The notes: generated from the sequence alone by a model not told the origin. 45,714 nucleotides of DNA from Euzebyaceae bacterium (GCA_013812395.1 JACCTL010000061.1:1-45714), one strand, 5' to 3'. Positions 3,849-36,548 are shown, numbered from the stretch's first letter. Made by a program: numbers and translations.

Positions 3849-5056
3849 CGGTCCTGACCCCTGCGCAAGCCGTGCGACTGCGGCTGCGCGGCCAGCGCCT
3901 CGACGGCAGCGGACCCGCTGTTGCCGGCGGGATCGCCGGCCTGCTCCGCGGCGTCGGCGGGCTGCAGGCGCAGGTGGCCGAGGCCGCCGCACTGGGCGTG
4001 CGGGCCCGCAGCAGCGGCCTTGCAGCCGCCGACGTCGACCGCATGCTCACCCACGAGCGCACCGTCGTTCGCACCTGGGCATGGCGAGGCACCCTGCACC
4101 TGATCGCCTCCGAGGACCTGCGCTGGATGCTGGCCCTCATCGCCCCCGTCGCGCTGCCGCGAGCAGCCCGCCGCCACGCGCAGCTGGGCCTCGACCACCG
4201 CACCCTGGCGGCGGGGGCCTGCAACATCGCCGACGCGGTGGCTGCTCATGGCCCGCTCACCCGCACCGAGCTGGTCACCCGGCTGCAGGGCGCCGGCATC
4301 GACGCGTCAGGCCAGCGTGCGCCCCACCTGCTGTGGTGGACGTCGATGCACGGGACGATCTGTCAAGGGCCTGACCGGGGACGCGACGCCACCTACGTGC
4401 TGGTCGACGACTGGCTTCCCGCGCTGCGGCCTGTCGACCGGGAAGTCGCCCTTTCCGCACTGGCCGCGCGCTATCTCGCCGCCTACGGACCTGCGACACC
4501 GCAGGACTTGGCGGCCTGGTCGGGCCTGCCGCTGCGCGACGCCCGTGCCGCCTGGTCGGCGCATCGGGGACTGACCGAGGTGCGCGTCGCTGAAGCGCCC
4601 GCGTGGCTGCTGGACGGACAGCGCGCGGATACACCGGACGGCCAGCAGCAGGCACCGGACAGCCAGCAGCCGCGTGTCCGCCTGCTTCCCGCCTACGACA
4701 CCTACCTGCTAGGACACCGCAGCCGGGAGTTGATCGTGCCCGCGACACACGCACGCGCGGTGCACCCTGGCGGCGGCATCATCCATGCGGTCCTGGCGGT
4801 GGACGGCCGCGCCGCTGGGACGTGGCGTAGCCGGCGTCGGGGCCGACGTGGCCTGGAGATCAGCGTCCGCCCGTTCGACGACCCGGCCGTCCTCTCGCAG
4901 CGCAGCGGTAGCACACAAGGCGCACCCGTCCGCGCGGCGATCCACCGCGAGGCCGCCGACGTCGCGCGCTTTGTTGGCAGGCAGCCGCACGAGCTCATCC
5001 TGGAGTCGGCTGATTCGCCGCATGAACTCATTGTGGAGTCGGTGGCTGCCCCGTGA
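3842..5056 (+). CDS. winged-helix DNA-binding domain protein of the AlkZ/YcaQ (DUF1006) DNA-glycosylase family
   Basis: ORF 3842..5056. The N-terminal GLQAQ matches the Q-x-Q motif I recall for AlkZ-type glycosylases. Also present are RTWAWRGTLHL, YLAAYGPATPQDLAAWSGL and LLPAYDTYLLGH. The C-terminus carries an 11-aa duplication. Confidence 0.75.
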   Translation: MIPVLTPAQAVRLRLRGQRLDGSGPAVAGGIAGLLRGVGGLQAQVAEAAALGVRARSSGLAAADVDRMLTHERTVVRTWAWRGTLHLIASEDLRWMLALIAPVALPRAARRHAQLGLDHRTLAAGACNIADAVAAHGPLTRTELVTRLQGAGIDASGQRAPHLLWWTSMHGTICQGPDRGRDATYVLVDDWLPALRPVDREVALSALAARYLAAYGPATPQDLAAWSGLPLRDARAAWSAHRGLTEVRVAEAPAWLLDGQRADTPDGQQQAPDSQQPRVRLLPAYDTYLLGHRSRELIVPATHARAVHPGGGIIHAVLAVDGRAAGTWRSRRRGRRGLEISVRPFDDPAVLSQRSGSTQGAPVRAAIHREAADVARFVGRQPHELILESADSPHELIVESVAAP

Positions 5057-6737
5057 GCTGGTCGGCGACCCAGCGGTCCACCAGCTCGCCGAGCACGCCC
5101 AACGGCACCGCGCCGTGGCCTAGGACCTCGTCGTGGAAGGCGGGCAGGTCAAAGTCGCCGCCCAAGGTGCGCTCCGCGTGCTCCCGCAGCCGGCGGATCT
5201 CGATCTGGCCGACCTTATAGCCCAGCGCCTGGCCCGGCCAGGAGATGTAGCGGTCCACCTCGTTGGCGACGTTGTTGAGCGCCAGCGGCGAGTTGTCGCT
5301 CATGTAGGCGATCGCCTGGTCCCGGCTCCACCCGAGGTGGTGCAGGCCGGTGTCGACGACCAGCCGGCAGGCACGCCAAGAGTCAAACGACAGCATCCCC
5401 AGCCGGTCACTGTCGCCCGAGTACAGGCCCATCTCGTCGGAGAGACGCTCGACGTACAACGCCCAACCCTCGACATAGGCGTTGATCCCGGCGTGCCGGC
5501 GGAAGTCGGGCACACCGTCCAGCTCCTGGGCCATTGCCAGCTGCAGGTGGTGACCCGGCACCGACTCGTGAAAGGCCAGTGCCTCGGCCTCGAAGCGGGG
5601 TCGTGTCTGCGGCGCCCACGTGTTGATGTAGTAGGTCCCCGGCCGCGAGCCGTCATCGGCGGGCGCGTAGTAGTAGGCGATGGTGCCGTCCTTGACCTCG
5701 TGCGGGGCCATCTCGCGCACCCGGCAGTCGGCCTGGGGCAGGCGCCCGAACCACGACGGCACGTGGTCCTGGGCGCGCCGCAGGGCTTGTTCCGCCGTGG
5801 CCCTGACCTCCTCGCTGGTGGAAAAGCGCAGCTCGGGGTCGTTGCGAAGCCGGTCGAAGATGGCGCGCAGGTCGCCGGTGCCAAGGACCTGGCTTCCCAG
5901 CTCCCGGTACTCGTCGGCAAGCCCGGCGACCGCGTCGGAGCCCAGCTGGTGCAGCTGCTCAGGCGCGAGGTCTAGCGAGGTGTACTGGCGAATGGCGCGA
6001 GCGTAGATCTGGGAGCCGTCCGGTAACCAGGTCACACCGCTGTGCTCGGGCGGGCGGGCGGCAACAAGGATGTCGGTGCGCAGCCGATCGCGGTAGCGCT
6101 GCAGGGCCGGGCGCACCGTGTCGGTGAGACGTTCCTGCAGCCGGCTCCGCCACGCCGAGCCGGCGGCCTCGTCCCAGGCGGCCGGCGGCGTGGGCGTCAG
6201 CAGCGGATCATCGGCCAGAGGCCTGGCGAGGTACTCATCGAGCTGACGAATGGTAGCGGTGACCGCTTGGGCCGGTGGGGTGCGGCCGGCGGCGACGCCG
6301 TCAAGCAGCCGCTGCTCGGCCTGCGCCAGGTACCCGGCCACCTTGCCGTAGCGCACCAGCAGCGCCTCGGCGTCAGCCGGTGAGGACAGCGTGAGGTTGG
6401 GGATGGATTCCAGTAGCTCGGCATGCGGGCTGCGAAAGGTCGGCGCGACGGTGTACTCGGCCTCTGCCGAGTCCAGGGCCTCGATGTCGCTGCGCAACTC
6501 GAAGCGCAAGGTCGCCAGGTTGACCCGATCGGCGACCGGCAGCGTGGCGTCATCGAAGCTGTCGGCGCGTTCGAGCAGGGTGCGCAGGCGCCCCGCGTGC
6601 CCTGCCTGTCCCTCGGCCGACGGGTCGGGCAGCTCAGTGTCGTAGCGGTGATCGCCGAGCAGGCTGGCCCCAAGTGGGTCCGCCGCCAGCCTGGCGTTCC
6701 AGAAGTCCTCGGACAGGGTCTCCAGAATAGGATCCAT
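5028..6737 (-). CDS. DUF885 family protein (putative metallopeptidase-like)
   Basis: ORF 5028..6737, 569 aa. It has the HESVPGHHLQ motif and length typical of DUF885. Its 3' end overlaps the convergent AlkZ-like gene by 29 bp. Confidence 0.8.
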   Translation of the reverse strand: MDPILETLSEDFWNARLAADPLGASLLGDHRYDTELPDPSAEGQAGHAGRLRTLLERADSFDDATLPVADRVNLATLRFELRSDIEALDSAEAEYTVAPTFRSPHAELLESIPNLTLSSPADAEALLVRYGKVAGYLAQAEQRLLDGVAAGRTPPAQAVTATIRQLDEYLARPLADDPLLTPTPPAAWDEAAGSAWRSRLQERLTDTVRPALQRYRDRLRTDILVAARPPEHSGVTWLPDGSQIYARAIRQYTSLDLAPEQLHQLGSDAVAGLADEYRELGSQVLGTGDLRAIFDRLRNDPELRFSTSEEVRATAEQALRRAQDHVPSWFGRLPQADCRVREMAPHEVKDGTIAYYYAPADDGSRPGTYYINTWAPQTRPRFEAEALAFHESVPGHHLQLAMAQELDGVPDFRRHAGINAYVEGWALYVERLSDEMGLYSGDSDRLGMLSFDSWRACRLVVDTGLHHLGWSRDQAIAYMSDNSPLALNNVANEVDRYISWPGQALGYKVGQIEIRRLREHAERTLGGDFDLPAFHDEVLGHGAVPLGVLGELVDRWVADQLTGQPPTPQ

Positions 6738-7131
6738 GCCCTGTTGCCTACCCAGGTGCTGCCGAACCGATTGGTCTATTGGTCTGGCCTGCCGACTGGT
6801 GGACTGACCTGCGTCTTGCCGCGCCCGTTACTTGTCGACAGGTTCCCGTAACCGAGGGTTTACCGGCGCGCCTTGGCGTAGAGCCTGCCAGACGAGGCCC
6901 CGTGGTGGCCTCTGCCGTCTGCCAGCGATCGTGCCCCAGACCCCGGTCGGGTCGTCGACGGATTGTGTCGAGTGCCACCACGAGGCCTCAACCCGACTCC
7001 GCGCTCAAGTCGCGAAGCCGGAGTTCGCATAATATCAGCGTTGATTAGTCGGCAACAAATCCCGCCAGCCTCTCCCCAGCCAGGTCATCGACGAGGTTTC
7101 GCGCAGAGTCTGCTGAGCAGGCTGCGTCTTG

Positions 7132-8640
7132 ATGGATGCCCGACTTCGCGCTGTCTGTGATCTGTCCGTGCCGGCCGCCCGGGAGCATGCCGGGTTACAT
7201 GAGTACGACGGCCGCCTGCAGGACCTGTCCGCGGACGGCGTGCGCGCCGGGCTGGCCAAGCTCGGCGACGGCCCACCGCTGGACGACCCCCACGACGAAC
7301 GCCACCTCGCCGCCTTCGAGACGTTGCTGCGCGTCAGTTTCGAGGTGATCGGCGACCACCGTCGTAACCCGCTGCTGCACATGGACAACCTCGACCTGGC
7401 CTGCTACGACCGGGAGTACGCGCCGGCCGAGGAACGCGCCGCGGCTCGCCGCCGGCATCTGGCTGCCTGGCCCGACGGGATCGCCATGGCCCTCGAGGCG
7501 CTGGACGCCGTACCGGCGCCGGTGGCCCAAGCGCTGTTGCCGGCCATCCGCGGCTTGGCGGCCGGCATCGACGCCGACAGCGGGCAGGTAGAAGCCGCGG
7601 CGATCGCGGCCCACCAACAGTTCGTGGCCCACATCGCGACCGCCGCCGAACACGGCCACCCTGATGCCGCCCTCGGCGCCGACCGCTTGGCGCGGCTGAT
7701 GGGCTCCGCGGAGAGCCTCGACGTCGACCTGGGCCGGCTGGCCGAGCGCGCTGACGCCGAGCGGGACCGGCTGCGCGCGATGCTCGCCGAGGCCTGCTCG
7801 GCCCTATATCCGCAGCGCAGCCTGCCCGACGCCGTGGCCGCGCTGGTCGCCGACCATCCCGACCCGGACGGTGTGCTGACCGAGGCGAGGGCCCTGACCG
7901 AGGAGACCATCGCCTTCACCGCCCAGCACCGGCTCGTCCCGCACACCGACGGAGAATGCCGAGTGGGTCCGGCACCGGAATCGCGCCGCTGGGCGATGGC
8001 GATGATGTCATGGGCCGCGCCCCACGAGGATGACGGCCCGTCCTGGTATCACGTGACGCCACCGGACTCATCGTGGCCAGCCCAGGACCAGGAAGAGTGG
8101 CTGGCGGTGTTCAGCCGGGCCACGCTGCCGGCCGTCACCGCCCACGAAGTGGCACCCGGTCACTTCACCCACGGGCGCTCCCTGCGGCGGGCGCCGACGC
8201 TCGTCCGGCGCACGCTGTTCAGTCTGGCCTTCGTCGAAGGCTGGGCGCATTACGCCGAGGAGATGTGCCTGGAAGAAGGGCTGCGCGCTGACGACCCGCG
8301 CTTCGCGGCGGGCGTCGCCATCGAGGCGCTGGTGCGGGTAACGCGCCTGGCCGTGGCCATCGGGCTGCACAGCGGCACGATGACCACTGAGGAGGCGGTG
8401 CAACGCTTCGTCTCCGACGCGCACCTGCAGGGACCGGCGGCGCGCAGCGAGGCAGTGCGCGCGACCTTCGACCCCACCTACGGGCGCTACACCTGGGGCA
8501 AGCTCGCCCTGATGGACCTGCGGGAGCGGGCGCGCGCGACGTGGGGCAACGAGTTCTCGCTGCTGCGGTTCCACAGCGCGTTGATGGCCTTGGGCTCTCC
8601 ACCGCTGGGCCTGCTGGACACGGCGCTGGAGCGCGGCTAA
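7132..8640 (+). CDS. DUF885 family protein, paralog
   Basis: ORF 7129..8640 (TTG 7129 is followed immediately by ATG 7132). HEVAPGHFTH is the equivalent motif. It is divergent from the first DUF885 gene. Confidence 0.75.
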   Translation: MDARLRAVCDLSVPAAREHAGLHEYDGRLQDLSADGVRAGLAKLGDGPPLDDPHDERHLAAFETLLRVSFEVIGDHRRNPLLHMDNLDLACYDREYAPAEERAAARRRHLAAWPDGIAMALEALDAVPAPVAQALLPAIRGLAAGIDADSGQVEAAAIAAHQQFVAHIATAAEHGHPDAALGADRLARLMGSAESLDVDLGRLAERADAERDRLRAMLAEACSALYPQRSLPDAVAALVADHPDPDGVLTEARALTEETIAFTAQHRLVPHTDGECRVGPAPESRRWAMAMMSWAAPHEDDGPSWYHVTPPDSSWPAQDQEEWLAVFSRATLPAVTAHEVAPGHFTHGRSLRRAPTLVRRTLFSLAFVEGWAHYAEEMCLEEGLRADDPRFAAGVAIEALVRVTRLAVAIGLHSGTMTTEEAVQRFVSDAHLQGPAARSEAVRATFDPTYGRYTWGKLALMDLRERARATWGNEFSLLRFHSALMALGSPPLGLLDTALERG

Positions 8641-8676
8641 GGGCCGGCGGCGCTTTTCTCTTCGCCCGTCGTCGGT

Positions 8677-8710
8677 GCACTGGTCAGCGCACTGGTCAGC
8701 GCACTAGTCA
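8677..8710 (+). repeat. three tandem 12-mers: GCACTGGTCAGC, GCACTGGTCAGC, GCACTAGTCA
   Basis: Read directly at 8677-8688, 8689-8700 and 8701-8710, about 95 bp upstream of the histidine kinase start. Confidence 0.85.
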
Positions 8711-8804
8711 TATTGAAGGGCCGCAAGATGACCCGTTGCCGGCAGCGGCCCGCGGGCAACACTGGAAGTAATGTTCGCTAGCCAGCCGCGCTGCAGGAGC
8801 TATC

Positions 8805-10136
8805 TTGACTCAGCCCGTTGAGCACGTCCTGGCGGCCCTGCCGCGAGGCAACTCGCTGGACGACAGATCCTGGGAACGACGCCACCGGCTGCTGCTGTGG
8901 CTGCTGGTGGCTCACGTGCCGGCGTTGCTGGTGGCTGGCTGGCTGGTCGGTCATTCGCCTCACCACCTGCTCGACGTGGCGCCGCTGGCGATCCTGGCCT
9001 GCGCCGGGATCTGGCTGCCTCGCCGTGGTCTGCGCACCGGGGCGGTCACCCTGGGGCTGGTCATGTCGGCCGCGGCGTTCGTGCACCTGACCGGCGGCGC
9101 GGTCGAGGCGCACTTCCACTACTTCGTGGTCTTCGGCCTCATCGGCTTGTACCAGGACTGGCGGCCGTATCTGCTGGCCGTCTGCTACGTGGTGGTCAGC
9201 CACGGATTGCTGGAAAGGTTGTACCCGGGCGGTATCTACAGCGATCCACGTGCCCTAGAGAACCCATGGCGCTGGGCGATGATCCACGGTGGCTTCCTGC
9301 TGGCGGCCTCGGTCGGGCAGCTGGTGTTGTGGAGGATCGTCAAGCGTCAGCGCAGCGAGGCGCGCCAGTACTACACGGCGCTGTATGAGGGCGAACACGC
9401 CCTGGTTGAGCAGATGCGCCAGGCCCAGCAGCTCAAGGATGAACTGATTGCCATCGTTGGTCACGAGTTCCGCACGCCCCTGACGTCGATCGTCGGCTAC
9501 GCTCAGACCTTGACCGCGCGGATGGAGGACATGGACCGGCGGGCTGTCAAGGCCAGTGCCACCGCGATCACGCGGGAAGCCAAGCGACTGACGCGCCTGG
9601 TCGCAAACCTCTTGGCGGCGTCCGAGGAGGCCACGGGCGACGTCGACCACGTCACCGACCTGGCAGGGGTCAGCGACGCGGTCATCGGCGACCTCGACGA
9701 GCTGGCACCCGCGCTGGCCCGGCGCGTCAACGTGTCGGTGCCGGCCGGGCACCATGTGGCGATGCGTCCCGAGGCGGTCCACCAAGTCGTCTTCAACCTG
9801 CTGGACAACGCGGTCAAGTTCTCCGACCAGGCCACCGAGGTCGGCCTGACCAGCCGCCGTGACGAGCAGATGGTCGTGCTGGAGGTCACCAACGTCGGGC
9901 CCGAGATCGACGAAGCGGACCGAGGGCGCATCTTCGAGGCGTTCGTCCAGGCCGACTCATCGGACACCCGGCGCTACGGCGGCCTGGGGCTCGGGCTGCA
10001 CATCGTGCGTAAGGTCGTGGAGGCGCACGGCGGACGAGTGGGCCTGTTCGGCGAGGGCCCGCTGGTCATCTTCCGTACCTGGTTGCCGGCGGCGCAGGTC
10101 TCCCCGCAGCTGGTCGCGCCTGCGTCCTCGGCCTGA
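8805..10136 (+). CDS. sensor histidine kinase (polytopic N-terminus, HisKA, HATPase_c), orphan
   Basis: ORF 8805..10136, TTG start 5 nt after AGGAG (8795-8799). It has the H-box GHEFRTPLTSI, the N-box NLLDNAVKF and the G-box GGLGLGLHIV. No response regulator is adjacent. Confidence 0.85.
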   Translation: MTQPVEHVLAALPRGNSLDDRSWERRHRLLLWLLVAHVPALLVAGWLVGHSPHHLLDVAPLAILACAGIWLPRRGLRTGAVTLGLVMSAAAFVHLTGGAVEAHFHYFVVFGLIGLYQDWRPYLLAVCYVVVSHGLLERLYPGGIYSDPRALENPWRWAMIHGGFLLAASVGQLVLWRIVKRQRSEARQYYTALYEGEHALVEQMRQAQQLKDELIAIVGHEFRTPLTSIVGYAQTLTARMEDMDRRAVKASATAITREAKRLTRLVANLLAASEEATGDVDHVTDLAGVSDAVIGDLDELAPALARRVNVSVPAGHHVAMRPEAVHQVVFNLLDNAVKFSDQATEVGLTSRRDEQMVVLEVTNVGPEIDEADRGRIFEAFVQADSSDTRRYGGLGLGLHIVRKVVEAHGGRVGLFGEGPLVIFRTWLPAAQVSPQLVAPASSA

Positions 10137-10191
10137 GCCGTCGGGTAGAACAGGCATTACCGCCACCTCGGCGGAATCTACTTGGAGAGAT

Positions 10192-11253
10192 GTGGACCCT
10201 TCGACACGACGCCTGACCGAGTTCAGCCACGGCGCGGGGTGAGCGTGCAAGCTCGCCCCCGGCGAGCTGGCGCAGGTCCTGCGCCACCTGACCCCCGTCG
10301 CCGCCCCTGACCTGCTCGTCGGCACCGACACCGGTGACGACGCGGCGGTCTGGCGGCTGGATGCCGACCGAGCCTTGGTGGCCACGGTCGACTTCATCAC
10401 GCCTGTGGTCGACGACGCCCGCCTGTGGGGCAGAATCGCGGCCGCCAATGCCGCCTCGGACGTCTACGCGATGGGTGGTCGACCCCTGTTCGCGCTCAAC
10501 GTCGTGGGCTGGAACGCGGCCGAGCTGCCCGTCGCCCTGCTCGACGAGGTCCTGGCCGGCGCGGCGGAGGCCGCGCTGGACGGAGGCTGGGTGGTCGCCG
10601 GCGGTCACACCGTGGACGATCCCGAGCCAAAGTTCGGTCAGGCGGTCATCGGCGAGGTCCACCCCGATCGGATCCTGAGCAACGCGGGCGTGCGCGCTGG
10701 CCAGTCTCTGGTCCTGACCAAGGCGCTGGGCGTGGGGGTGGTGGCCACGGCGATCAAGCGCGGGCGGGCGCCGGCGGCGGTGGTCGAGGCCGCGGTGGCG
10801 TCGATGACGCGGCTCAACGCACAGGCGGCAGCCGCGGCGCTGACTGCGGGTGCCACCGGGGCCACCGACGTGACGGGCTTCGGGCTGCTGGGCCACCTGC
10901 GCAAGCTCGCGGAGGCCTCCAGGGTGGACGCCGAGATCGACGCCGCCGCCGTGCCGCTGCTGCCCGGCGCCCGCGAGCTCGCCGGGGCGGGCATGGTGCC
11001 GGGCGGGACCGCCCGCAACCTGGAATGGGTTCGACCGCGCCTCGACGTCGGTGGCGTCGATGACGTGACCGTCACGCTGCTCGCCGACGCGCAGACCTCG
11101 GGTGGCCTGCTGTTCGGCGCGCCCGCCGCCGCGGCAGTCGCCGCCGTGGAGGGCTTACGCCAGACCGGCCACGACGCGGCGGTCATCGGCACCGTCACCG
11201 ACGGCGCCGGCCGGATCCGCTTGCGCCCCTCGCCAAGGAGCGCAGCGCGTTGA
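10192..11253 (+). CDS. selD: selenide, water dikinase (selenophosphate synthetase) with selenocysteine encoded by in-frame TGA 10240-10242
   Basis: GTG 10192 follows GGAGAG and gives VDPSTRRLTEFSHGAG-TGA-ACKLAPGELAQVL.... This runs without another stop into ORF 10375..11253 (DFITPVVDD, GGHTVDDPEPKFG, TDVTGFGLLGH). The TGA is codon 17, the position of Cys17 in E. coli SelD (SHGAGCGCK). Confidence 0.85.
10250..10285 (+). promoter_or_regulatory. candidate SECIS region (two hairpins) downstream of the selD UGA
   Basis: AGCTCGCC (10250-10257) pairs with GGCGAGCT (10261-10268). GGCGCAG-GTC-CTGCGCC lies at 10269-10285 and has a GUC apical loop. Confidence 0.45.
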
Positions 11254-11696
11254 CGCGCGCGGAGATCCAAGGACGGATCGACCTCGACCGGCAGACCTTC
11301 GATGCCCTCGTGGCCCATGCCCGCAGCGACGCGCCGTACGAGGTCTGTGGCTTCCTCGCCGGGGCCGACGGGCAGGTGAACCGGCATTACCAGATCCCCA
11401 ACGCCGCACGGTCGATGACCTTCTACACCATGGACCCCAAGGCGATGCTGCGGGCCATGAACGACATGGACGACTCGGGCAGCGAGCTCATCGCGATCTA
11501 TCACAGCCACACCCACACCGAGGCCTTCCCCTCGGCGACCGACGTGGAGCTCGCCGCCTATCCCGACGCGGTGTACCTGATCGTCTCGCTGCAGGACGAC
11601 ACCCCCGTCGTGCGCGGCTTTGACATCGTCGAGGGCAAGATCACCGAGCGCAGTGTCTTCGTCGACGGCGCCCAAGCGCCCGGGGGTAATCGCTAG
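11250..11696 (+). CDS. mec: JAMM/MPN+ metalloprotease (CysO-cysteine peptidase, Mec+-like)
   Basis: It has the EVCGFLAG glutamate motif and the HSHTHTEAFPSATD JAMM motif. TTG 11250 overlaps the selD stop (TTGA). AAGGAG lies at 11235-11240. Confidence 0.85.
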   Translation: MTRAEIQGRIDLDRQTFDALVAHARSDAPYEVCGFLAGADGQVNRHYQIPNAARSMTFYTMDPKAMLRAMNDMDDSGSELIAIYHSHTHTEAFPSATDVELAAYPDAVYLIVSLQDDTPVVRGFDIVEGKITERSVFVDGAQAPGGNR

Positions 11697-11850
11697 CCGG
11701 CCTGCGTTTCGGCAGGTGCCGTGCGCGACGGCCAGCAAAGAGATGTGGGTTCTCTCATGAGAGCCTTACGGTCTGCTCATACCTGCGGCTCAGGCTTCAT
11801 GGCATGCGGCCTCCAACGCACTTCGCGGCAAGCCCCCTGGGGAACACGGC

Positions 11851-12540
11851 GTGAACGACGATGCTGCACGCATCCATCGAGCGATGGCGGGACCGGTGGG
11901 CTTGCGCAATCCACGCTCGCTGTGCTTCGCGCTGCCGCTGGGTCGGGGGGATCGGCTCGTTGTCGTCGGTTCGTTTCCGGAGGTGGTGCGCTCTGCGGGC
12001 GCCATGGGTGTTGACACCGTGTCAGTGCTCACCTCCAGGCAGCGTGAGGCTGCTCGACGCGGCGGCGAAGTGGCGATCGTGGATGCCGGTGACGCCGTGC
12101 CACTTGCCGACGGCTGGGCCGATCACCTCATCATCCCGGCGTTGCGCGATTGGCAGCGTTATCTCCTCGCGCGCGAGCTTGCGCGCATCGTGCGGCCCGG
12201 CGGTCACCTGTTCCTGGCCGCCAAGGCTGCATGGCGTCCAACGCGCGACAGGTCGGCGCTGACGCTGCGCCATGGTCGGCGGCTGCTGCGCAACGGCGGC
12301 TTCAAGGTCGTCGAGGAGTACGCCATGCGGCCCGGTCTGCACAACCCACATCATCTCGTACCGGTCGCCAGCAGCGAGGCGCTGCGCTGGTATGTGGAGT
12401 GCGCCTACCTACCGGTGACCGGCGGTGGCCTGCTCCACGCGCGCGTCCTGCGGCGAGTTCCCAGTCGCCTCTTGGCGTTGACGCTCTTCCCAGCGCTGGG
12501 TGTTCGCGCGCGGCGGACCGACGACGAGGTGACGCGGTGA
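11851..12540 (+). CDS. class I methyltransferase-fold protein with a degenerate SAM-binding loop
   Basis: ORF 11851..12540. LARIVRPGGHLFLA is a typical post-II methyltransferase segment. VVVGSFPE occupies the place of the glycine-rich motif I. The start could instead be ATG 11884. Confidence 0.55.
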   Translation: MNDDAARIHRAMAGPVGLRNPRSLCFALPLGRGDRLVVVGSFPEVVRSAGAMGVDTVSVLTSRQREAARRGGEVAIVDAGDAVPLADGWADHLIIPALRDWQRYLLARELARIVRPGGHLFLAAKAAWRPTRDRSALTLRHGRRLLRNGGFKVVEEYAMRPGLHNPHHLVPVASSEALRWYVECAYLPVTGGGLLHARVLRRVPSRLLALTLFPALGVRARRTDDEVTR

Positions 12541-13553
12541 TCGGCACGATTCTGGAGGAGATCGCGGGCGCCGGCATCAACATCCACGCTCACGTCCCGC
12601 CGTCGTTCGCCCGCGTTCAGATGGGCAGCCGTCGTGAGGGACGGGCGGTGTGGGCGCTGTTCGCCAATCGGCGAGCAACGCCCTCGGTCATCATCAAGGT
12701 GGATCACAGCGCCCGTTATCGCCATCGACTGGTCGCCGAACACGAAGCCCTTACCGCCTTGCGGCCACGCGAGGACCTCACCGGCACCGTGCCGCGGCCG
12801 TTGGGCTTGGTGCGCACGAAACGCCGGATCATCGTGATCCAGACCGGCCTGCCCGGGCGTCCCATGAACGTCGTGCTGCGCCAGCGCGGTCGGGCCTCGG
12901 CGAGGATCAGCGCACGTGATCACGAAGGCACCTTCGACTGGCTGTCCACCCTTCAGAGTCGGCCGCCGGCCGGGACGGTGACGATCCACCCGGACGCGGT
13001 GCACGAGCGTGTCGCGACGGCAGTGGGCGAACCTTTGGATCGCCAGCGGGCGTTCTTGCGGCATGTGCGCGATCTCGGGACGGCCATCGGCCAAGTGCAG
13101 TTGCCCCTGCTGCCCGGGCATGGCGATCTGGGAACCAGCAACTGCCTGTTGGATCGGTCGGCCGTACGGGTCATCGACTGGGAGGGCGGTGCCCACCCGC
13201 GCACGCCGATCGAGGACGCGGTGCTGCTGCTAAACCACTACGCGCGGGCGCTGCCCGTCTCCCACCTACCGCCCAACCGCTTCGACGCCTTCCACCGGGC
13301 CTTCCTCAACGGCGACTGGCTCGGTGAGTTGACCGCCCGATCATTCGGCCGGCACCTGCGGCGCCTGGGACTGCCCGTCGGCCTCGACGAGTACCTGTTC
13401 GTGGCGGCGTTGGCCGATCTGGCAACCGGGCACGCGCAGACCGCACATGTTGACGCCACCGTCACCTACTGGACGATGCTGCTGCGTAGCTACGCCGATC
13501 GATTCGCCGAATCAGTCTTGCGCGAACGGAGATCACCGGGTCGGGGACGCTAG
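12537..13553 (+). CDS. APH/choline-kinase-fold phosphotransferase
   Basis: GTG 12537 overlaps the upstream stop (GTGA). It has VIIKV (lysine), AEHEAL, the Brenner motif HGDLGTSNCLL and VIDWEG. Confidence 0.8.
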   Translation: MIGTILEEIAGAGINIHAHVPPSFARVQMGSRREGRAVWALFANRRATPSVIIKVDHSARYRHRLVAEHEALTALRPREDLTGTVPRPLGLVRTKRRIIVIQTGLPGRPMNVVLRQRGRASARISARDHEGTFDWLSTLQSRPPAGTVTIHPDAVHERVATAVGEPLDRQRAFLRHVRDLGTAIGQVQLPLLPGHGDLGTSNCLLDRSAVRVIDWEGGAHPRTPIEDAVLLLNHYARALPVSHLPPNRFDAFHRAFLNGDWLGELTARSFGRHLRRLGLPVGLDEYLFVAALADLATGHAQTAHVDATVTYWTMLLRSYADRFAESVLRERRSPGRGR

Positions 13554-13596
13554 CCTTTCAGTCCCCACCGTCAACCCGGGAGCGTGTCGGAAACCA

Positions 13597-13872
13597 ATGG
13601 CCATCGAAGTCCGGATCCCCACCGTCCTGCGCAAGCACACCGACGGTGAGGGCAAGGTGAGCGGCGAGGGCTCGACACTGGCCGAGCTGTTCGACGACCT
13701 CGGGGGGCGCAACCAAGGGCTGCACCAAGCGCTGGTCGGTAGCGACGGGCAGTTGCACCGTTTCATCAACGTCTACCTCAACGACGAGGACGTCCGCTTC
13801 CTCGGCGGCATCCAGACGCCGCTGCAGGACGGCGACACGGTCTCCATTCTTCCGGCCGTCGCCGGGGGCTGA
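13597..13872 (+). CDS. cysO: MoaD/ThiS-family sulfur carrier protein CysO
   Basis: ATG 13597. It is 91 aa and ends ...SILPAVAGG (C-terminal Gly-Gly). It sits directly before cysM. Confidence 0.85.
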   Translation: MAIEVRIPTVLRKHTDGEGKVSGEGSTLAELFDDLGGRNQGLHQALVGSDGQLHRFINVYLNDEDVRFLGGIQTPLQDGDTVSILPAVAGG

Positions 13873-13878
13873 TCGGCG

Positions 13879-14823
13879 ATGCCCGCGCGCGACATCAGCC
13901 AAGCCGTCGGCGGCACGCCACTGGTCGGATTGCCTTCGATGTCGCCGCCCGGCTACTCGCTGTATCTCAAGCTGGAGGGGCACAACCCCACCGGTTCGGT
14001 CAAGGATCGGGTCGCGGCCTACCTCATCGCCGCCGCCGAGCGCTCCGGCAAGCTGCACCAGGGCTCCCGGGTGCTGGAGCCGACCTCGGGCAACACCGGT
14101 ATCGCCCTGGCCGCGATCTGCGCACCAAAGGGCTACAAGTTGACCTGCGTCCTGCCGGAGAACACCTCGCAGGAGCGGCGCGTGCTGCTGTCGCTGTACG
14201 GCGTCGACATCGTGTCCAGCCCGGCCGGGGAGGGATCCAACGGCGCGGTCCGCGTCGCGCGTGAGATGGCCGCCGACGACCCCGATCTGTACATGCCATT
14301 CCAGTACGGCAATCCCGCCAACCCGCAGGCGCACTACGAGACCACGGCACCGGAGATCCTGCGCGACCTTCCCGACGTCGGCGCCCTGGTGGCTGGTCTG
14401 GGCACCGGTGGAACGCTGACAGGCGCCGGGCGGCGCTTCAAAGAACACGATCCGCAGATCAGGATCTTCGCCGCCGAACCGGAGTACGGTGATCTGGTCT
14501 ACGGGCTGCGCAACATCGACGAGGGCTTCGTGCCCCCAGTGCTCGACACCTCGGTACTCGACGGCCGGATCAAGGTCGACTCGCTCAAGGCGCTGCGGGC
14601 GACCCGCGACCTGGCGACAGCCGAGGGCATCTTCGCCGGCGTTTCGACGGGCGCGGCCCTGGCGGTAGCGCTGCGGGTGTGCGATCCGCGCCGCCTGCCC
14701 GAGGGCACCAAGATCGTCGTCGTCTCGCCGGACGGGGGATTCAAGTACCTGTCGACCGGCGCCTACGCTCCCGGCGACGTCGCCGGCATCGCCGAGGGGC
14801 TGTCACAGACGCTGTGGGCCTGA
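13879..14823 (+). CDS. cysM: cysteine synthase B / O-phosphoserine sulfhydrylase
   Basis: It has the PLP-lysine motif NPTGSVKDR, plus TSGNTGIALA and GLGTGGTLTG. Confidence 0.9.
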   Translation: MPARDISQAVGGTPLVGLPSMSPPGYSLYLKLEGHNPTGSVKDRVAAYLIAAAERSGKLHQGSRVLEPTSGNTGIALAAICAPKGYKLTCVLPENTSQERRVLLSLYGVDIVSSPAGEGSNGAVRVAREMAADDPDLYMPFQYGNPANPQAHYETTAPEILRDLPDVGALVAGLGTGGTLTGAGRRFKEHDPQIRIFAAEPEYGDLVYGLRNIDEGFVPPVLDTSVLDGRIKVDSLKALRATRDLATAEGIFAGVSTGAALAVALRVCDPRRLPEGTKIVVVSPDGGFKYLSTGAYAPGDVAGIAEGLSQTLWA

Positions 14824-14915
14824 CCGACCGTCGTGGAGCTATGACGGCCTGACCGGCCGCCACGCAGGCACGACGGCATGGCCGGCGGATCAGCGGGCAG
14901 CGGTCCGGGCCCGCT

Positions 14916-14921
14916 TACACT
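14916..14921 (+). promoter_or_regulatory. possible -10 hexamer TACACT for a leaderless murI transcript
   Basis: It matches TANNNT and ends 8 nt before ATG 14930. No Shine-Dalgarno sequence lies in between. Confidence 0.25.
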
Positions 14922-14929
14922 GCGCGGCG

Positions 14930-15853
14930 ATGACCAACGACCGCAGTGGCGCAGCGCCACCAGGGCCGCTAGTTGGGGACCCGCGCCCAATCGGCGTGTT
15001 CGACTCGGGCGTCGGCGGTCTGACGGTGGCGCGGGCGCTGATGGACCTGCTGCCCGACGAGCGGATCGTGTACTTCGGTGACACCGCCCGGGGACCGTAC
15101 GGTCCTCGCGACCTGGACACCGTCCGTCGCTTCACGGCCGAGATCGTGGACTGGCTCGCTGCGCAGGACACCAAACTGGTCGTCGCGGCGTGCAACACCG
15201 CCACCGCCGCGGCGCTGGAGCCGTCGGCGTCGGGGCCGCTGCGTTTCGACGTCCCGGTGGTCGGCGTCATCCGGCCCGCCGTCGACACAGCGGTCCGCGC
15301 GACGCGCAACGGCCGCATCGGCGTCATCGGCACGGTCGGCACGGTGGCGTCGGGCGCTTACGACCGGGCGGTCGCCGAGGTCGCCGCTAACGTCAAGGTC
15401 TTCAGCCAGGCGTGTCCACGCTTCGTGGAGCTGGTTGAACAGGGCCGCACGACCGACCCTTACGTCCTCGACGTCGCCGCGGACTACCTGGGCCCGATGG
15501 TGGCCGCGGGTGTTGACACACTCATCCTTGGCTGCACGCACTATCCCTTGCTCACGGGGGTGCTGACCTACGTCATGGGGCGTGGTGTGGTGCTGGTGTC
15601 CTCGGCCGAGGAGACCGCCCGCCGGGTGTTCGTCGACCTGGTCGACCGTCAGGCGCTGGCCCACGGCGAGCCGGTCCGCGCCGGTCACCGCTTCGTCGCC
15701 AGCGGCGCCCCGGCGTCGTTCGCACAGCTCGGCGCCCGCTTCCTAGGCCCACGACTGACGGCCGTGGACGTCGAACGCCGGGTGCCCGGCGTCTCCCAGC
15801 CGGTGCCGGTCGCGGGCCGCGCCGCCGCAGCCCGCGGTGGGGGCAGTCGTTGA
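14930..15853 (+). CDS. murI: glutamate racemase
   Basis: It has GVFDSGVGGLTV, VVAACNTATA and LGCTHYPLL, the two catalytic Cys motifs. Confidence 0.9.
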   Translation: MTNDRSGAAPPGPLVGDPRPIGVFDSGVGGLTVARALMDLLPDERIVYFGDTARGPYGPRDLDTVRRFTAEIVDWLAAQDTKLVVAACNTATAAALEPSASGPLRFDVPVVGVIRPAVDTAVRATRNGRIGVIGTVGTVASGAYDRAVAEVAANVKVFSQACPRFVELVEQGRTTDPYVLDVAADYLGPMVAAGVDTLILGCTHYPLLTGVLTYVMGRGVVLVSSAEETARRVFVDLVDRQALAHGEPVRAGHRFVASGAPASFAQLGARFLGPRLTAVDVERRVPGVSQPVPVAGRAAAARGGGSR

Positions 15854-16599
15854 GCCTGCGGCTGACGGTGCTCGGCTGTGCCGGCACCCACCCCGGGCCA
15901 GCGCGCATGTGCTCGTCGTACCTGCTGGAAACGCCGGACTACCGGCTGCTGGTGGACTGCGGCAACGGTTCGCTGAGCAACCTGCAGCAGCGCTGGGACG
16001 TCGCCGACATCGACGCGGTGCTGATCAGCCACCTGCACCCCGACCACTTTTCTGACCTGTACGGCCTGTACTACACGCTGCGCTTCCACCCCGACGGTCC
16101 GCTCTCGGTGCCCGTCTACGCGCCGGGCGGGGCGCAGCGGCACCTGGCGCAGGTGGTCAACGACGACGGCGAGTTCGCCAACCGCCTGCATTTCCACGCC
16201 GCCTCGGCGGGGAGCCGCTTGCAGCTGGGACCGCTGACCCTGGACCTGTTCCGCGCCAACCATCCCGTCGAGACGCTGGCGCTCCGCGTCGCCACCGACC
16301 GCGTGGTCGTGGCCTACAGCGCTGATAGCGCCGCCACACCGGCGTTGACCGAGGCCGCCCGCGACGCCGACCTGTTTCTGTGCGACGCGACCTGGCTGGA
16401 GCGGCACCGTCCGCTACCTTCCGGCATCCACATGACCGGCGCCGAGGCCGGCCGGCAAGCCGCGGACGCGGGCGCCGCCCGGCTGCTGGTGACACACGTC
16501 ATCCCCTCAAACGACCCGGCCGAGGTCGCCGCCGAAGCCGCGGCCAACTACGACGGGGAGGTCCTGGTGGCCAACGACATGTTCTCGATCGAGCTGTGA
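15850..16599 (+). CDS. MBL-fold metallo-hydrolase
   Basis: It has the [10 protein letters not shown] (HxHxDH) motif. The TTGA overlap with murI is at 15850-15853. Confidence 0.85.
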
Positions 16600-17318
16600 C
16601 GCGCAGCGACGGGCGCAGCAACGACGCTCTGCGGCCGGTGTCGGTCCGCACGGGGGTGCAGGAGTTCGCCGAAGGCTCGGCGCTGGTCAGTTTCGGTCGC
16701 ACCCAGGTCCTGTGCGCGGCCAGCCTCGATACCGGCGTTCCCCGCTGGCGGCAGGGCTCGGGACTGGGCTGGGTGACCGCCGAGTATTCGATGCTGCCCC
16801 GCGCCACCAGCGAGCGCACGGCCCGCGAGTCGACGCGGGGCCGCGTCGGCGGCCGCACCCACGAGATCCAGCGGCTGATCGGGCGCTCTCTGCGGGCCGC
16901 AGTCGATCTCGCCGACCTGCGCGAGCACACCATTCAGGTCGACTGCGACGTCCTGCAGGCCGACGGTGGCACCCGCACGGCCGCCATCACCGGGGCGTGG
17001 GTGGCACTGGCGCTGGCGATCGACGAGATGGTCCGCCGTGGCCTACGGCCCTCCAGGCCGACCATGACCCCGCTGGCCGCCGTGAGCGTCGGCGTTGTCG
17101 CAGGGGAGCCGATGCTGGATCTGTGCTACGCCGAGGACGTCGTCGCCGACACCGACTGCAACGTGGTCATGACCGGTGACGGGCGGTTCGTCGAGGTGCA
17201 GTCCACCGCTGAGCACGACCCGTTCAGCCGCGCGCAGCTCGACCGGATGCTGGAGCTGGCGACCGACGGCTGCCGTGCCCTGTTCAAGGTGCAGCAGGCG
17301 GCGGTGGAGGGGGCGTGA
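16596..17318 (+). CDS. rph: ribonuclease PH
   Basis: GTG 16596 overlaps the upstream stop. It has [27 protein letters not shown] and [19 protein letters not shown]. Confidence 0.9.
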
Positions 17319-17962
17319 CGGCGCGGCTGGTCCTGGCCAGCCGCAACCAGGGCAAGGTCGCCGAGCTGCGTCGAATCCTGGCCGCGGATCCCGCGTTGGC
17401 CGGCGTCAGGCTGCTCGACGCGGACGAGCTGGGAGTGCCCGATGTCGACGAAACCGGCGCCACCTTTGCCGACAACGCGCTGCTCAAGGCCCGTTCCGCG
17501 GTTGGCGCCTGTGGCTTGCCGTGCATCGCCGACGACAGTGGTCTGGAGGTCGCTGCGCTGGACGGGGACCCCGGGGTTCGCTCGGCGCGCTACGCGGGCG
17601 CCCACGGCGACGACGATGCCAACCTGGCGCTGGTCCTCCAACGGATGCGGGGAGTGACCGACCGCACGGCGCGGTTCGTCTGCGTGGCCGCGCTGGTTGC
17701 ACCTGACGGCGGCGAGTGGACGGCACAGGGGACCGTCGACGGCACGCTGACCGAGACTCCTCGCGGCAAGAACGGGTTCGGCTACGACCCTATCTTCCAG
17801 CCGGCCGGTCAGCGCCAGACCACGGCGGAGATGACCGCGCCGGCAAAGGACGTGATCTCGCACCGGAGCAGGGCCTTACGCGCCACTCTGCCGGCGGTGC
17901 GCCGGCTGCTGGCAGACCAGTTGCTGGGTGATCAGTCCTCGCCGCCGATGTCCACCGCATAG
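17315..17962 (+). CDS. rdgB: non-canonical purine NTP pyrophosphatase (RdgB/HAM1)
   Basis: GTG 17315 overlaps the rph stop. It has [30 protein letters not shown] and SHRSRA. Confidence 0.9.
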
Positions 17963-26942: not shown

Positions 26943-29027
26943 CTATGGCAGGAACCGATCCGCCGTGATGGGCAGGTCCCGGACGCGTGTCCCGGTGGCG
27001 TGATAGGCGGCGTTGGCGATGGCGGCGGCGGCGCCGACGATGCCGATCTCGCCGATGCCCTTGGAGCCCATGGGGTTGAGGTGTGGATCATGCTCGTCGA
27101 GCCAGACGGCGTCGATGTCGCCGACATCGGCGTTGGTGGCGATGTGGTACTCGGCAAAGTCGTGGTTCACGACATGGCCGCTACTGGGATCCATGACGCT
27201 GTGCTCATGCAGCGCCATGGACAGGCCCATCGTCATCCCGCCGATGAACTGGGAGCGGGCCGTACGTGGGTTGATGATCCGCCCCACGGCGAAGACCCCC
27301 AGCTGCCGGGGCACCCGGATCTCGCCGGTGTCGGCGTGCACGCGAACCTCGGCAAACTGCGCCCCGAAGGCGTGCATTGCGAAGCGCTCGCTGGCCGGGT
27401 TGTCCGGTGTCTCACCTTCGGTCTCGGAGCCGTCGGCGGGATCGGGTCCGTACTTGTCGCGGAAGGCCCGTGCCACCCCGACGATCGTCGAGCCCCAGTT
27501 GCTGATGCCCGACGACCCGCCGGCCACGGTGGCCATCGGCAGGGCGGAGTCGCCGATCTGCAGGTCGACGGCCTCGACGGGCACGTCGAGCGCGTCGGCG
27601 GCGATCTGGGTGAGCGTCGTCCAGGTGCCGGTGCCGATGTCGGCGGCGCCGATGCGCACCGTGAAGCGCCCGTCGGGGCCGGAGCGGATGTTGGCCACCG
27701 AGCCAGGTTGGCGGTAGGCCGGATAGGTCGAGCTCGCCACCCCGGTGCCGACCAGCCAGCCGCCGTCGCGCCGGGCAGCGGGCGTGGGGTCACGCCGGTC
27801 CCAGCCGAAGCGGCGCGCTCCCTCGCGCAGGCAGCCGACGAGGTTACGGCTGGAGTACGGCAGGCCCGACTCGGGGTCGGTGGCCGGCTCGTTGCGAACG
27901 CGCAACTCGATGGGGTCGATGCCGCAGGCGACGGCCAGCTCGTCCATCGCCACCTCGGGACCGAACATCCCCGGACACTCGCCGGGTGCTCGCATCCATG
28001 ACGGCACCGGCACGTCGAGAGCGGCCAGCCGGTGGCTGGTCCGACGGTTCGGCGAGGCATACATGGTCCGGGTCGAGACCGCGGTCTGCTCGGCGAACTC
28101 CTTGATCTTCGAGGTCTGCTCGACGACGTCGTGGGCGATCGCCGCCAGGTGCCCGTCGCTGTCGGCGCCGAGGCGCACCCGCTGGATCGTCGGTGTGCGG
28201 TAGCCGACGAGGCTGAACATCTGCTGGCGAGTCAAGGCCAGCTTCACGGGTCGGCCGCTGGTCACCTGGGCGGCCAAGCCGGCGAGGACGACGTGCGCAT
28301 GCGGCATGCCCTTAGACCCGAAGCCGCCGCCGACGTGGGGGGCGATCACCCTGACCCGCTCGGGGTCCAGCCCGAACACCGGGGCGACGGTCGTGCGGAC
28401 GGCGTGCACCCCCTGCGTGGAGTCGTACAGGGTGAGGCCGTCGTCGTTCCAGATCGCGACGGTGGTGTGCGGCTCCATCGGGTTGTTGTGCTGCATCGCC
28501 GTGGAGTAGGTCTGATCGACCGTCAGCGCGGCCGACTCCAGCGCGGCATCCACGTCGCCGTCGTCGGTGTCGGTCGGGAAGGAGGGGTTGACCACCTCCG
28601 GTGCGTACAGGTCGTCGCGGTCGGCGCGCAACTGCACGTCGTAGGGCTGCTCGTCGTAGGAGACGCCCATGAGGCTGGCCGCGTGCCGGGCGACCTCGGG
28701 GGTGTCGGCGATGACGGCGCCGACGAACTGGCCACGGAAGGCGACCTCGTCGGACTGCAGTACGGCGAGCTCCGCGTCGTCGGTGCTGGCGAGCCGCGGC
28801 GCGTTGACGTGCGTCAGCACGGCCACGACCCCGTCGAGCGCCTCGGCCGTCGCCGTGTCGACGGCCGTGACCCGGCCACGGGCGATGGTGGCCTGGACCG
28901 GGTGCAGGTAGGTCGCTCGCTCGAGCGGCTGCTCGAAGGCGTAGATGGCGGTACCGGTGACCTTGGCGCGCCCGTCAAGGCGTGCCAGCGATGTGCCGAT
29001 CGCGCGCGGCCGCAGCGGCTCGGTCAT
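26943..29027 (-). CDS. xanthine dehydrogenase/aldehyde oxidase family molybdopterin-binding subunit
   Basis: ORF 26943..29648 trimmed to ATG 29027 ([27 protein letters not shown]...), which overlaps the FAD-subunit stop (ATGA). The length and the GGGFG-type segment ([10 protein letters not shown]) fit the family. Confidence 0.85.
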
Positions 29028-30031
29028 GGTCGGTCCTTCGTGCCCTGGTCGCGCGCTGCCAGGTCGCGCAGCACCGCGACCAGCGTGTTGCGGGCCATCG
29101 CCACCTTGAAGCCGTTGTCGCGTAAGGGTCGCGCCTGGGCGAGCTCGGCGTCGGCGGCGGCGGCGAACGTCGCGTCGTCTGCCGGCGCGCCGCGGAGCCG
29201 CTCCTCGGCACGAGTTGCCCGCCACGGCTTGTGGGCCACCCCCCCGAGGGCGACCCGCCCGTCGCGAACCACGCCGCCGTCGATGTCCAGCGCCGCTGCC
29301 ACCGAGACCAGCGCGAAGGCGTAGGAGGCGCGGTCGCGCACCTTGCGGTAGGCCGACCTGACTGCGAATCCCAGCGCCGGCACGTCGACGGCCGTGATCA
29401 GTTCGCCGTGTTCGAGCACGGTGTCGCGCTGCGGCTCGTCGCCGGGCAACCGGTGAAAGTCCACCAGCGGGATGCTGCGCTCGCCATCCGCGCCCAGCAC
29501 CACGACGGCGGCGTCGAGCGCGGCCATCGCCACGGCCATGTCCGAGGGATGGGTGGCCACGCAATGCTCGGACGCGCCGAGGATCGCGTGGTTGCGGGTC
29601 CAGCCGTCGATCGCCGAGCAACCCGCTCCGGGTTGGCGCTTGTTGCACGGCGTGGTGACGTCCTGGAAGTACACGCAGCGGGTGCGCTGCAGCAGGTTGC
29701 CGCCGGTGGTCGCCAGGTTGCGCAGCTGACCGGACGCGCCGGCGAGCAGGGCCTCGGACAGCACCGGGTAGCGGGAGCGGATCAGCGGGTCGGCGGCCAG
29801 GTCGCTGTTGCGGACCGTCGCGCCGATGCGCACGCCGCCGCCGGGGAGCTGCTCGATCGCGTCGTAGGGCAGCCGGGTGACGTCGACGAGCAGGTCCGGG
29901 TCGGCCACGCCGAGCTTCATGTGGTCGACCAGGTTCGTGCCGCCGCCGAGGAACGCCGCGCCGGGCCGGCGAGTCACGGTGGCGACCGCGCTGGCGCCAT
30001 CCGCCGCGCGCTGGTAGTCGAACGGGATCAC
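29024..30031 (-). CDS. FAD-binding (CoxM/YagS-like) subunit of the molybdenum hydroxylase
   Basis: GTG 30031 overlaps the 2Fe-2S gene stop. It has [15 protein letters not shown] and [12 protein letters not shown]. Confidence 0.85.
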
Positions 30032-30531
30032 GGCGCCACCGCCCGGATCGCCGCGACGATGTTGGCGTACGCGCCGCAGCGGCACAGGTTGCCGCTCATG
30101 CGCTCCCGGATCTCGTCGTCGTCCAGCTGCTGCGGGCCGGTCGGGTCTTGTGTGACGTGGCTCGGGTGGCCGGCCTCGAACTCGTCGAGCATACCGACGG
30201 CGGAACAGATCTGGCCGGGCGTGCAGTAGCCGCACTGAAAGCCGTCGTGGTCGATGAAGGCCTGCTGCAGTGGGTGCAGGTTATCGCCGTCCTCCAGACC
30301 GGCGGCGGTGGTGATCCGGGCACCGTCGTGGGCCACCGCCAAGGCCAGGCACGTGTTTGCACGGCGGCCGTCCAGCAGCACCGTGCAGGCACCGCACTGG
30401 CCGTGGTCACAGCCCTTCTTTGGCGAGGTCACGCCGAGCCGCTCGCGGAGCGCGTCGAGCAGGGTCGTCCGCGTGTCGATGGTCAACGACCGCTGCTCGC
30501 CGTCCACCGACAGCGTGATCTGTGCTTGCAT
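30028..30531 (-). CDS. (2Fe-2S)-binding small subunit of the molybdenum hydroxylase
   Basis: GGAG lies 8 nt before ATG 30531. It has [20 protein letters not shown] and LCRCGAY cysteine clusters. Confidence 0.9.
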
Positions 30532-36489: not shown

Positions 36490-36548
36490 GGTTGTTCCGG
36501 ATGAGATAGTCAATGTTGCTTACTATGCGGCGATGGTAAGGTAGCTTG

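Follow-up and report, generated by a model that had tools for sequence, protein, structure and literature searches.

Why should the gene of the selenium-activating enzyme, selenide,water dikinase (SelD), stand at the head of a gene cluster for cysteine synthesis? The question is raised by a contig of 45,714 nucleotides from a Euzebyaceae bacterium (GCA_013812395.1, JACCTL010000061.1:1-45714; called "the window" throughout and ca. 70% G+C), in which selD overlaps mec and is followed on the same strand by cysO and cysM, the genes of a carrier-protein route to cysteine. A first-pass annotation of this DNA proposed that the ubiquitin-like carrier CysO might also traffic selenium, with a CysO acyl-selenide giving free selenocysteine (Sec), or else that sulfur and selenium assimilation are co-regulated. 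Here we report that selD and mec are neighbors far beyond chance and that SelD is itself a selenoprotein, and we lean toward a reading in which two canonical systems share one old operon and are linked by their co-expression.

The selD-mec junction and its recurrence

The stop codon of selD (TGA 11251-11253) and the start codon of mec (TTG 11250-11252) form a TTGA overlap of 4 nucleotides, and a Shine-Dalgarno sequence, AAGGAG, lies inside selD at 11235-11240, 9 nucleotides upstream of the mec start. These coordinates all agree with the first-pass annotation, which had called TTG 11250 the only plausible start of mec. This view is upheld by its being the first start codon of the open reading frame (ORF) and by the conservation of the start position, which is ATG, GTG or TTG in every related locus with a Mec homologue aligned from residue 1; a start at GTG 11310, the next one in frame, would cost 20 conserved residues. 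Where the two genes overlap, there is no space for a promoter or terminator between them. From this overlap of stop and start codons, we infer that both genes would be co-transcribed, and the translation of mec is probably coupled to the completion of selD. The same 4-nucleotide overlap is present in four further loci (L181, L093, L100, and L101 by the locus numbers of our comparison).

The adjacency of selD and mec recurs widely. Scanning GTDB species genomes with SelD returned 80 loci, in seven of which selD precedes mec-cysO-cysM-murI in the same orientation (L011 and L026 of Egibacteraceae, L018 of Euzebyales, and L036, L050, L061, and L064 of unclassified Actinomycetota or Actinomycetes). 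A scan of JGI metagenome contigs with Mec also returned 80 loci, for which we give counts over the assessable ones: where Mec is at least 54% identical, selD lies upstream in 23 of 29 loci (within 200 bp in 16) and two further loci belong to the window's own species, whereas below 54% identity selD is upstream in 0 of 23 and the gene order is cysO-cysM-mec in many. Three more sister species with selD-mec (L181, L182, and L183) were found via a kinase gene located between mec and cysO. The order is shared by SelDs of the Sec type and of the Cys type, the latter in L026, L036, L061, L064, L101, and the L122 group. Only in L061 and L064 does the block also include thiF, which lies between mec and cysO (11522-12340 and 11596-12396, respectively) in the order selD-mec-thiF-cysO-x-cysM, with x being an unknown gene in L061 and a phosphoesterase-family gene in L064. 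Because the adjacency recurs in dozens of independent contigs, it is far beyond chance, and its spread over four deep actinobacterial lineages (the window's Nitriliruptoria-like group, L122/L123/L125, L061/L064, and L050) dispels the concern, voiced in the first-pass annotation, that it might be unique to this strain.

Pairwise identities of SelD and CysM are correlated over 19 block-carrying loci (Spearman 0.87), which argues that one block has been co-inherited. Between the deep lineages, CysM proteins are 51-66% identical, and they diverge from each other as much as from CysM of Mycobacterium tuberculosis (51-63% identity); the arrangement is therefore old. In a rough neighbor-joining tree of SelD (without support values), mec-linked SelDs are intermixed with SelDs from other contexts. 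Independent origins of the adjacency, as this intermixing could suggest, were not adopted because the correlation of SelD and CysM distances fits a single origin.

SelD, a selenoprotein, and the Mec, CysO, and CysM proteins

The selD gene starts with GTG at 10192, and its product scores 372.4 bits against the TIGR00476 equivalog model (cut-off 125) and 346.9 bits against NF002098 (cut-off 299). Its best solved relative is SelD of Escherichia coli (3U0O, 246 bits) in an end-to-end alignment that places U17 on Cys17 and K20 on Lys20 of the E. coli enzyme (HGAG-U-ACK versus HGAGCGCK). Codon 17, three residues before this lysine, is an in-frame TGA that the first-pass annotation had overlooked; 43 related loci share the TGA at the aligned codon, and 54 have TGC or TGT there. 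Directly after the UGA follow two tandem hairpins (folding z-score -3.5) that resemble a Sec insertion sequence (SECIS). An alignment of 42 distinct Sec-type selD sequences has 92.5% of the cells of this element paired and 7 pairs changed on both sides. The covariation score was reached by 0 of 500 shuffles, and controls with a slid register are only 27-41% paired. The loop of the second hairpin is GUC, with G and U invariant in the alignment of Sec-type selD genes, and the hairpin pair is missing from most Cys-type selD genes. Rfam gave no match in the window at the gathering threshold and merely noise around the SECIS-like element. Sec-type SelDs with a SECIS right after the UGA are a well-known variant of this enzyme. 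Given the UGA at the catalytic position and the covarying SECIS-like structure behind it, SelD of the window is a genuine selenoprotein. By its sequence it is otherwise a textbook SelD without any distinguishing feature, and it would make selenophosphate. Public gene calls on contigs of the same species cut the product of selD to 291-321 aa at the Sec codon, an error that our analysis corrects.

Since SelD is a selenoprotein, the organism must have Sec decoding, and we expect selA, selB, and selC elsewhere in this genome. With Sec decoding implied by the UGA of SelD itself, the canonical Sec pathway already accounts for selD, and the need for a new explanation of this gene that was implicit in the first-pass annotation falls away. 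The annotation had also conceded that a complete Sec-decoding set plus ordinary selenoproteins fully accounting for selD, with no selenium-dependent phenotype of cysO/cysM mutants, would undermine its selenium proposal, and this comes close to what we see: SelD is itself a selenoprotein, though neither selA nor selB nor selC could be located for this genome. Orthologous selD genes of the sister lineage Nitriliruptoraceae (L045, L049, L077, and L175) sit in a canonical selC / selD-selA-selB cluster, and several other actinobacteria likewise carry selD-selA-selB, in several cases with an adjoining tRNA-Sec gene. These clusters share the same orthologous SelD with the window (TIGR00476, Sec/Cys17, Lys20), but the window and its related loci have no selA, selB, or tRNA-Sec within at least 10 kb and feature mec downstream instead. 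One unrelated actinobacterial lineage from metagenomes (L167, 6001-10316) has selA-selB followed directly by clpS and a DUF2017 gene, a pair whose place in M. tuberculosis we take to be immediately before the mec region. An ancestral link via clpS-DUF2017 was dropped, as no homologue of ClpS or DUF2017 is present in the window or in any locus examined other than L167.

Mec matches Pfam Prok-JAB (PF14464) at 2.5e-25 and has the metal motif HxHx7Sx2D, with HSHTHTEAFPSATD aligning to the JAMM structures 2KKS and 5LDA. In most related loci its gene directly adjoins the cysO/cysM cluster, but in the window 1.9 kb separate it from cysO downstream. CysO is a ThiS-family protein (PF02597) with the C-terminus AVAGG whose best solved relatives are 4N6E_B (5.6e-29) and CysO of M. 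tuberculosis (3DWG_C, 1e-26); no homologue of ThiF, the cognate E1-like adenylase, is encoded in the window. CysM, a fold-type II enzyme, matches PALP at 4e-72, fails to reach the NCBIfam cut-offs of either CysK or E. coli-type CysM, and has CysM of M. tuberculosis (3DWG/3DKI, 309 bits, 52.5% identity) as its closest solved relative, compared to no more than 242 bits for other cysteine synthases. The alignment takes in the C-terminal tail, the part that binds CysO, up to the last residue (...LWA), and R211 aligns with residue 222 of 3DWG_A, which we equate with the phosphate-recognizing Arg220 of the native protein on the assumption of two extra N-terminal residues in the structure. The Pfam matches and closest solved structures thus bear out the first-pass identification of mec, cysO (with its C-terminal GG), and cysM, and all three products look like ordinary proteins of the M. 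tuberculosis type.

Readings of the arrangement

We give somewhat better than even chances to the view that two canonical systems have come to share one old operon and that the link between them is co-expression. SelD would provide selenophosphate for the ordinary Sec pathway, with its own UGA17 read as Sec with the help of the two-hairpin SECIS, while Mec, CysO, and CysM would convert O-phosphoserine to cysteine by means of CysO-thiocarboxylate, as they do in M. tuberculosis. The TTGA overlap would imply co-transcription and probably couple the translation of mec to the end of selD. After a single origin, the order selD-mec-cysO-cysM would have been passed on as one unit in several deep lineages, among them Euzebyales/Egibacterales-like Nitriliruptoria and three more. 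As the reason for its retention, we suggest that both modules may be wanted under the same conditions, be it for the thiol/selenol redox economy or for the supply of sulfur and selenium, with no intermediate shared between them.

Several observations weigh against this view. Unrelated genes have been inserted between selD and mec: L011, L092, and L115 carry amt there, which encodes an ammonium transporter, and the L122 group carries a gene for a beta-lactamase-fold serine hydrolase, which itself overlaps the selD stop; L117, L119, and L126 have a similar gap of 1.1-1.3 kb. Furthermore, selD is missing from the mec cluster of six related loci (L091, L096, L104, L108, L109, and L130), so that selection for tight coupling does not hold everywhere. 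In the window, no tRNA gene, selA, or selB accompanies selD, and three SelA candidates recovered as homologues of the Nitriliruptoraceae SelA (P0076, P0024, and P0082) all turned out to come from other organisms. A scan for consensus promoters and terminators (8600-15100) found nothing on the plus strand, a result that is uninformative at 70% GC. Finally, murI, the gene of a metallo-beta-lactamase (MBL)-fold hydrolase, rph, and rdgB are linked to cysM as stably and over the same depth, and we know of no functional tie of these genes to cysteine synthesis. On these data, retention for co-regulation is indistinguishable from neutral synteny.

In a rival reading without functional meaning, selD would once have landed at the 5' edge of a very stable mec-cysO-cysM-murI-MBL-rph-rdgB block and been carried along ever since, frozen in place. 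The equally deep conservation of the downstream synteny speaks for it, as do identity patterns that fit a single origin and vertical descent, a junction that accepts insertions and gaps (1-177 nucleotides and up to 1.5 kb), the six related loci in which selD is missing from the site, and the tolerance of the cluster for a two-gene cassette of unrelated context. Yet selD is a patchy gene that is often lost or relocated, and finding it at the same place and on the same strand in around 80% of assessable loci over four deep lineages speaks against this reading, as do the 4-nucleotide start/stop overlaps in five lineages, which are typical of operons under selection. We hold this reading to be somewhat unlikely.

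A direct biochemical coupling, in which selenium passes through the CysO/CysM/Mec machinery, seems unlikely to us. It could take the form of a CysO-selenocarboxylate giving CysO-Sec and then free Sec, of selenophosphate attacking the aminoacrylate that CysM forms from O-phosphoserine as in SepSecS or SelA, or of a route supplying free Sec or perselenide as the selenium source of SelD. Selenide can be turned into free Sec by O-acetylserine sulfhydrylases, and both SelA and SepSecS add selenophosphate to an aminoacrylate bound to pyridoxal 5'-phosphate (PLP); the deep conservation of the gene order with its recurrent overlaps, the fact that it holds for Sec-type and Cys-type SelDs alike, and the presence of the E1 gene thiF within the cluster, right after selD-mec, in L061 and L064 would also fit. 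However, SelD is ordinary and explained by the Sec trait that its UGA implies, no genome with the block has been shown to be an "orphan SelD" genome, and the orthologous SelDs of the sister lineage sit with selA and selB. The insertions between selD and mec and the loci lacking selD also count against it, CysM, CysO, and Mec are of the ordinary M. tuberculosis type, and the literature that we searched holds no biochemical precedent. The CysO acyl-selenide route to free Sec put forward in the first-pass annotation is not supported by these data and stays pure inference. In its most far-reaching form, selD-mec-(thiF)-cysO-cysM would encode an offshoot of the carrier-protein cysteine pathway devoted to selenium that yields free Sec from O-phosphoserine, either via CysO-selenocarboxylate or by direct selenophosphate attack on the CysM aminoacrylate, or that provides a protected selenium feed to SelD, which we deem quite unlikely.

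Alternatively, the junction could act as a selenium sensor: ribosomes stopping at UGA17 when selenium is low would uncouple mec, possibly with Rho-dependent polarity, and so make the cysteine genes depend on selenium. The early position of the UGA (codon 17) with its SECIS and the TTGA overlap of selD and mec would suit such a switch, and the same layout of Sec codon plus overlap is found in L181, L093, and L100. But Cys-type SelDs keep the gene order, and the Cys-type locus L101 even keeps the same 4-nucleotide overlap, while in many loci of the Sec type the two genes are set apart by a gap or an insertion; in the window itself, cysO and cysM lie a further 1.9 kb downstream behind a gap of 155 nucleotides and the cassette. 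A polarity switch of this kind is very unlikely in our eyes. Both this switch and the biochemical coupling draw on gene order only.

The inserted gene pair, neighboring genes, and known systems

The gene order on the plus strand of the window was derived from third-position GC content and family searches (Pfam and NCBIfam) and is listed in the table. All of selD, mec, the kinase gene, cysO, cysM, and the downstream genes were found where the first-pass annotation had placed them and on the same strand, and a Pfam scan together with the identical locus L001 corroborated its order of murI, MBL hydrolase, rph, and rdgB behind cysM. Contigs with an identical CysM, whose neighboring proteins are 98-100% identical, are found in two metagenome-assembled genomes (GCA_965611335.1 and GCA_030858365.1) and in several ENA/JGI metagenome assemblies; the nearest labeled relatives are termed Euzebyaceae, Euzebyales, or Egibacteraceae, which suggests an actinobacterium of the class Nitriliruptoria. 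Two more metagenome-assembled genomes, GCA_030858865.1 and GCA_013698135.1, carry the block as well.

Table. Positions of selD, the cysteine genes, and their neighbors in the window (APH, aminoglycoside phosphotransferase)
Feature	Position	Strand	Basis or remark
DUF885 gene	7129-8640	+	
Orphan sensor histidine kinase	8805-10136	+	Pfam HisKA and HATPase_c; 55-nucleotide gap to selD
Sec-type selD (selenide,water dikinase), 353 codons with the UGA counted	10192-11253	+	TIGR00476; AIRS and AIRS_C
In-frame TGA, Sec codon at the catalytic Cys/Sec position	10240-10242	+	motif HGAG*ACK
SECIS-like element, tandem hairpins 10250-10268 and 10269-10285	10250-10285	+	folding, covariation
mec, JAMM/MPN metalloprotease of the CysO-Cys hydrolase type	11250-11696	+	Pfam Prok-JAB
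229-aa degenerate class-I methyltransferase-like ORF	11851-12540	+	sub-threshold Pfam Methyltransf_11
APH-fold small-molecule kinase-like protein	12537-13553	+	motifs, structure model
cysO, ThiS/MoaD-type sulfur carrier, ATG start	13597-13872	+	Pfam ThiS; C-terminal Gly-Gly
cysM, PLP-dependent cysteine synthase of the O-phosphoserine type	13879-14823	+	PALP
murI	14930-15853	+	Pfam Asp_Glu_race
MBL-fold hydrolase	15850-16599	+	Pfam Lactamase_B_2
murI, MBL hydrolase, rph, rdgB block	14930-17962	+	RNase_PH and Ham1p_like from the identical locus L001

The two genes that separate mec from cysO in the window, behind ca. 155 nucleotides of non-coding DNA downstream of mec, are an inserted cassette and not a conserved part of the pathway. 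The pair occupies the same site in the sister species L181-L183 (with orthologues of the first ORF, likewise of 229 aa, in L181 and L182) and is absent from L089, whose SelD is 88% identical, and from most selD-mec-cysO-cysM loci. The same gene pair is found at 37-47% and 41-50% identity in L184-L186 beside unrelated genes, i.e., those of a GMC oxidoreductase, TetR/P450, and MetH/GGDEF proteins. The first of the two had been annotated as methyltransferase-like, and while the ORF is indeed present, this label is weak: its score against Pfam Methyltransf_11 is 20.8 versus a cut-off of 21.2, its motif I for S-adenosylmethionine binding is degenerate (VVGSFPE instead of GxGxG), and its structure model is unusable with a predicted local distance difference test (pLDDT) score of 45. 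We found 6 homologues of this ORF and 17 of the kinase. The kinase gene has its GTG start at 12537, where it overlaps the end of the first ORF as GTGA, and its product was rightly called an APH-fold kinase, as judged from a predicted structure (pLDDT 92) with APH(3') enzymes as top Foldseek matches (E 3e-9), the motifs HGDLGTSN (the HxDxxxxN loop) and IDWEG (the metal site), and PF01636 in its homologues. The idea that it might be a serine kinase feeding O-phosphoserine to CysM was rejected given the unrelated contexts of the cassette and its absence from most blocks. A second APH-family phosphotransferase is encoded at 35332-36513 on the minus strand, adjoining a gene for a 2-hydroxyacid dehydrogenase.

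Between assemblies of this species, there are three indels in this region that are either assembly errors or genuine strain variation, namely 1 nucleotide at 11682 near the 3' end of mec, which alters the final residues of Mec, 1 nucleotide at 11945 within the methyltransferase-like ORF, and an intergenic segment of 107 nucleotides (11718-11824) that is missing from L005 and L006.

Upstream of selD, the order histidine kinase-selD is also seen in L036, L098, L101, L102, and L181, with no adjoining response regulator, and in L091 the same histidine kinase abuts mec with selD being absent. Genes of the DUF885 family, present in the window at 5028-6737 (minus strand) and 7129-8640 (plus strand), recur within a few kb of selD both in mec-containing loci (L018, L094, and L181) and in L007, L010, and L013, where selD is followed by genes for a VTT-domain protein and a DUF885 protein rather than mec. 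Some 16 kb away from selD, the minus strand encodes a molybdenum enzyme of the xanthine dehydrogenase (XDH)/CO dehydrogenase family with a large subunit of 901 aa and a 2Fe-2S subunit (26943-30531). No yqeB/yqeC, SirA-like, or XdhC-type gene, the markers of a third selenium trait that involves YqeB/YqeC and molybdenum hydroxylases, is among the Pfam-scanned neighbors of selD or of this enzyme.

The closest known counterpart of the cysteine genes is the mec-cysO-cysM cluster of M. tuberculosis, which we take to be Rv1334-Rv1336 and to have no selD. There, too, the three genes stand in this order on one strand and are followed by murI, MBL hydrolase, rph, and rdgB; common to both are also the equivalent of CysM Arg220 with the C-terminal tail, the GG end of CysO, and the JAMM motif of Mec. 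The window differs in having selD before and overlapping mec, in the cassette between mec and cysO, and in lacking a rhomboid gene between cysM and murI. With the PSTK/SepSecS route, in which O-phosphoseryl-tRNA and selenophosphate give Sec-tRNA, there is a chemical analogy only, given a PLP enzyme acting on an O-phosphoserine moiety, a selenophosphate synthetase alongside, and a kinase gene in this subclade. CysM, however, uses free O-phosphoserine and a protein thiocarboxylate, the kinase belongs to the cassette with its unrelated contexts elsewhere, and neither SepSecS nor PSTK is related in sequence.

Among the neighborhood and fusion links of SelD described by Zhang et al. 2008 (PMC2432076) are YbbB, SelA/SelB, an NADH oxidoreductase, a SirA-like protein, and HP1/HP2, but not Mec, CysO, or CysM. 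The evidence presented here is of the same kind as for those links (YbbB/SelU, the NADH oxidoreductase fusion, the SirA-like protein, and YqeB/YqeC), i.e., a conserved selD neighborhood, though theirs were backed by co-occurrence and orphan-SelD genomes (PMC2432076) whereas in our case a Sec trait is implied and no orphan-SelD genome emerged. Full-text searches of the literature turned up no publication that connects SelD with CysO or other sulfur carrier proteins, Mec, the thiocarboxylate route, or cysteine synthase, in agreement with the first-pass annotation, which knew of no such link. The arrangement selD-mec-cysO-cysM thus apparently constitutes a selD neighborhood that had not been described, and an operon variant built from known families.

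Conserved neighborhoods of selD have repeatedly pointed to new selenium biology, as in the case of SelU and of the YqeB/YqeC trait, and selD-mec adds a further one that is represented by dozens of contigs. The block brings the enzyme that activates selenium together with the only cysteine pathway that works without free sulfide. A regulatory link would bear on how aerobic and often haloalkaliphilic actinobacteria coordinate or separate sulfur and selenium. If the link were biochemical, and if this proved true, it would amount to a new selenium route and a new SelD-dependent selenium trait in Actinomycetota.

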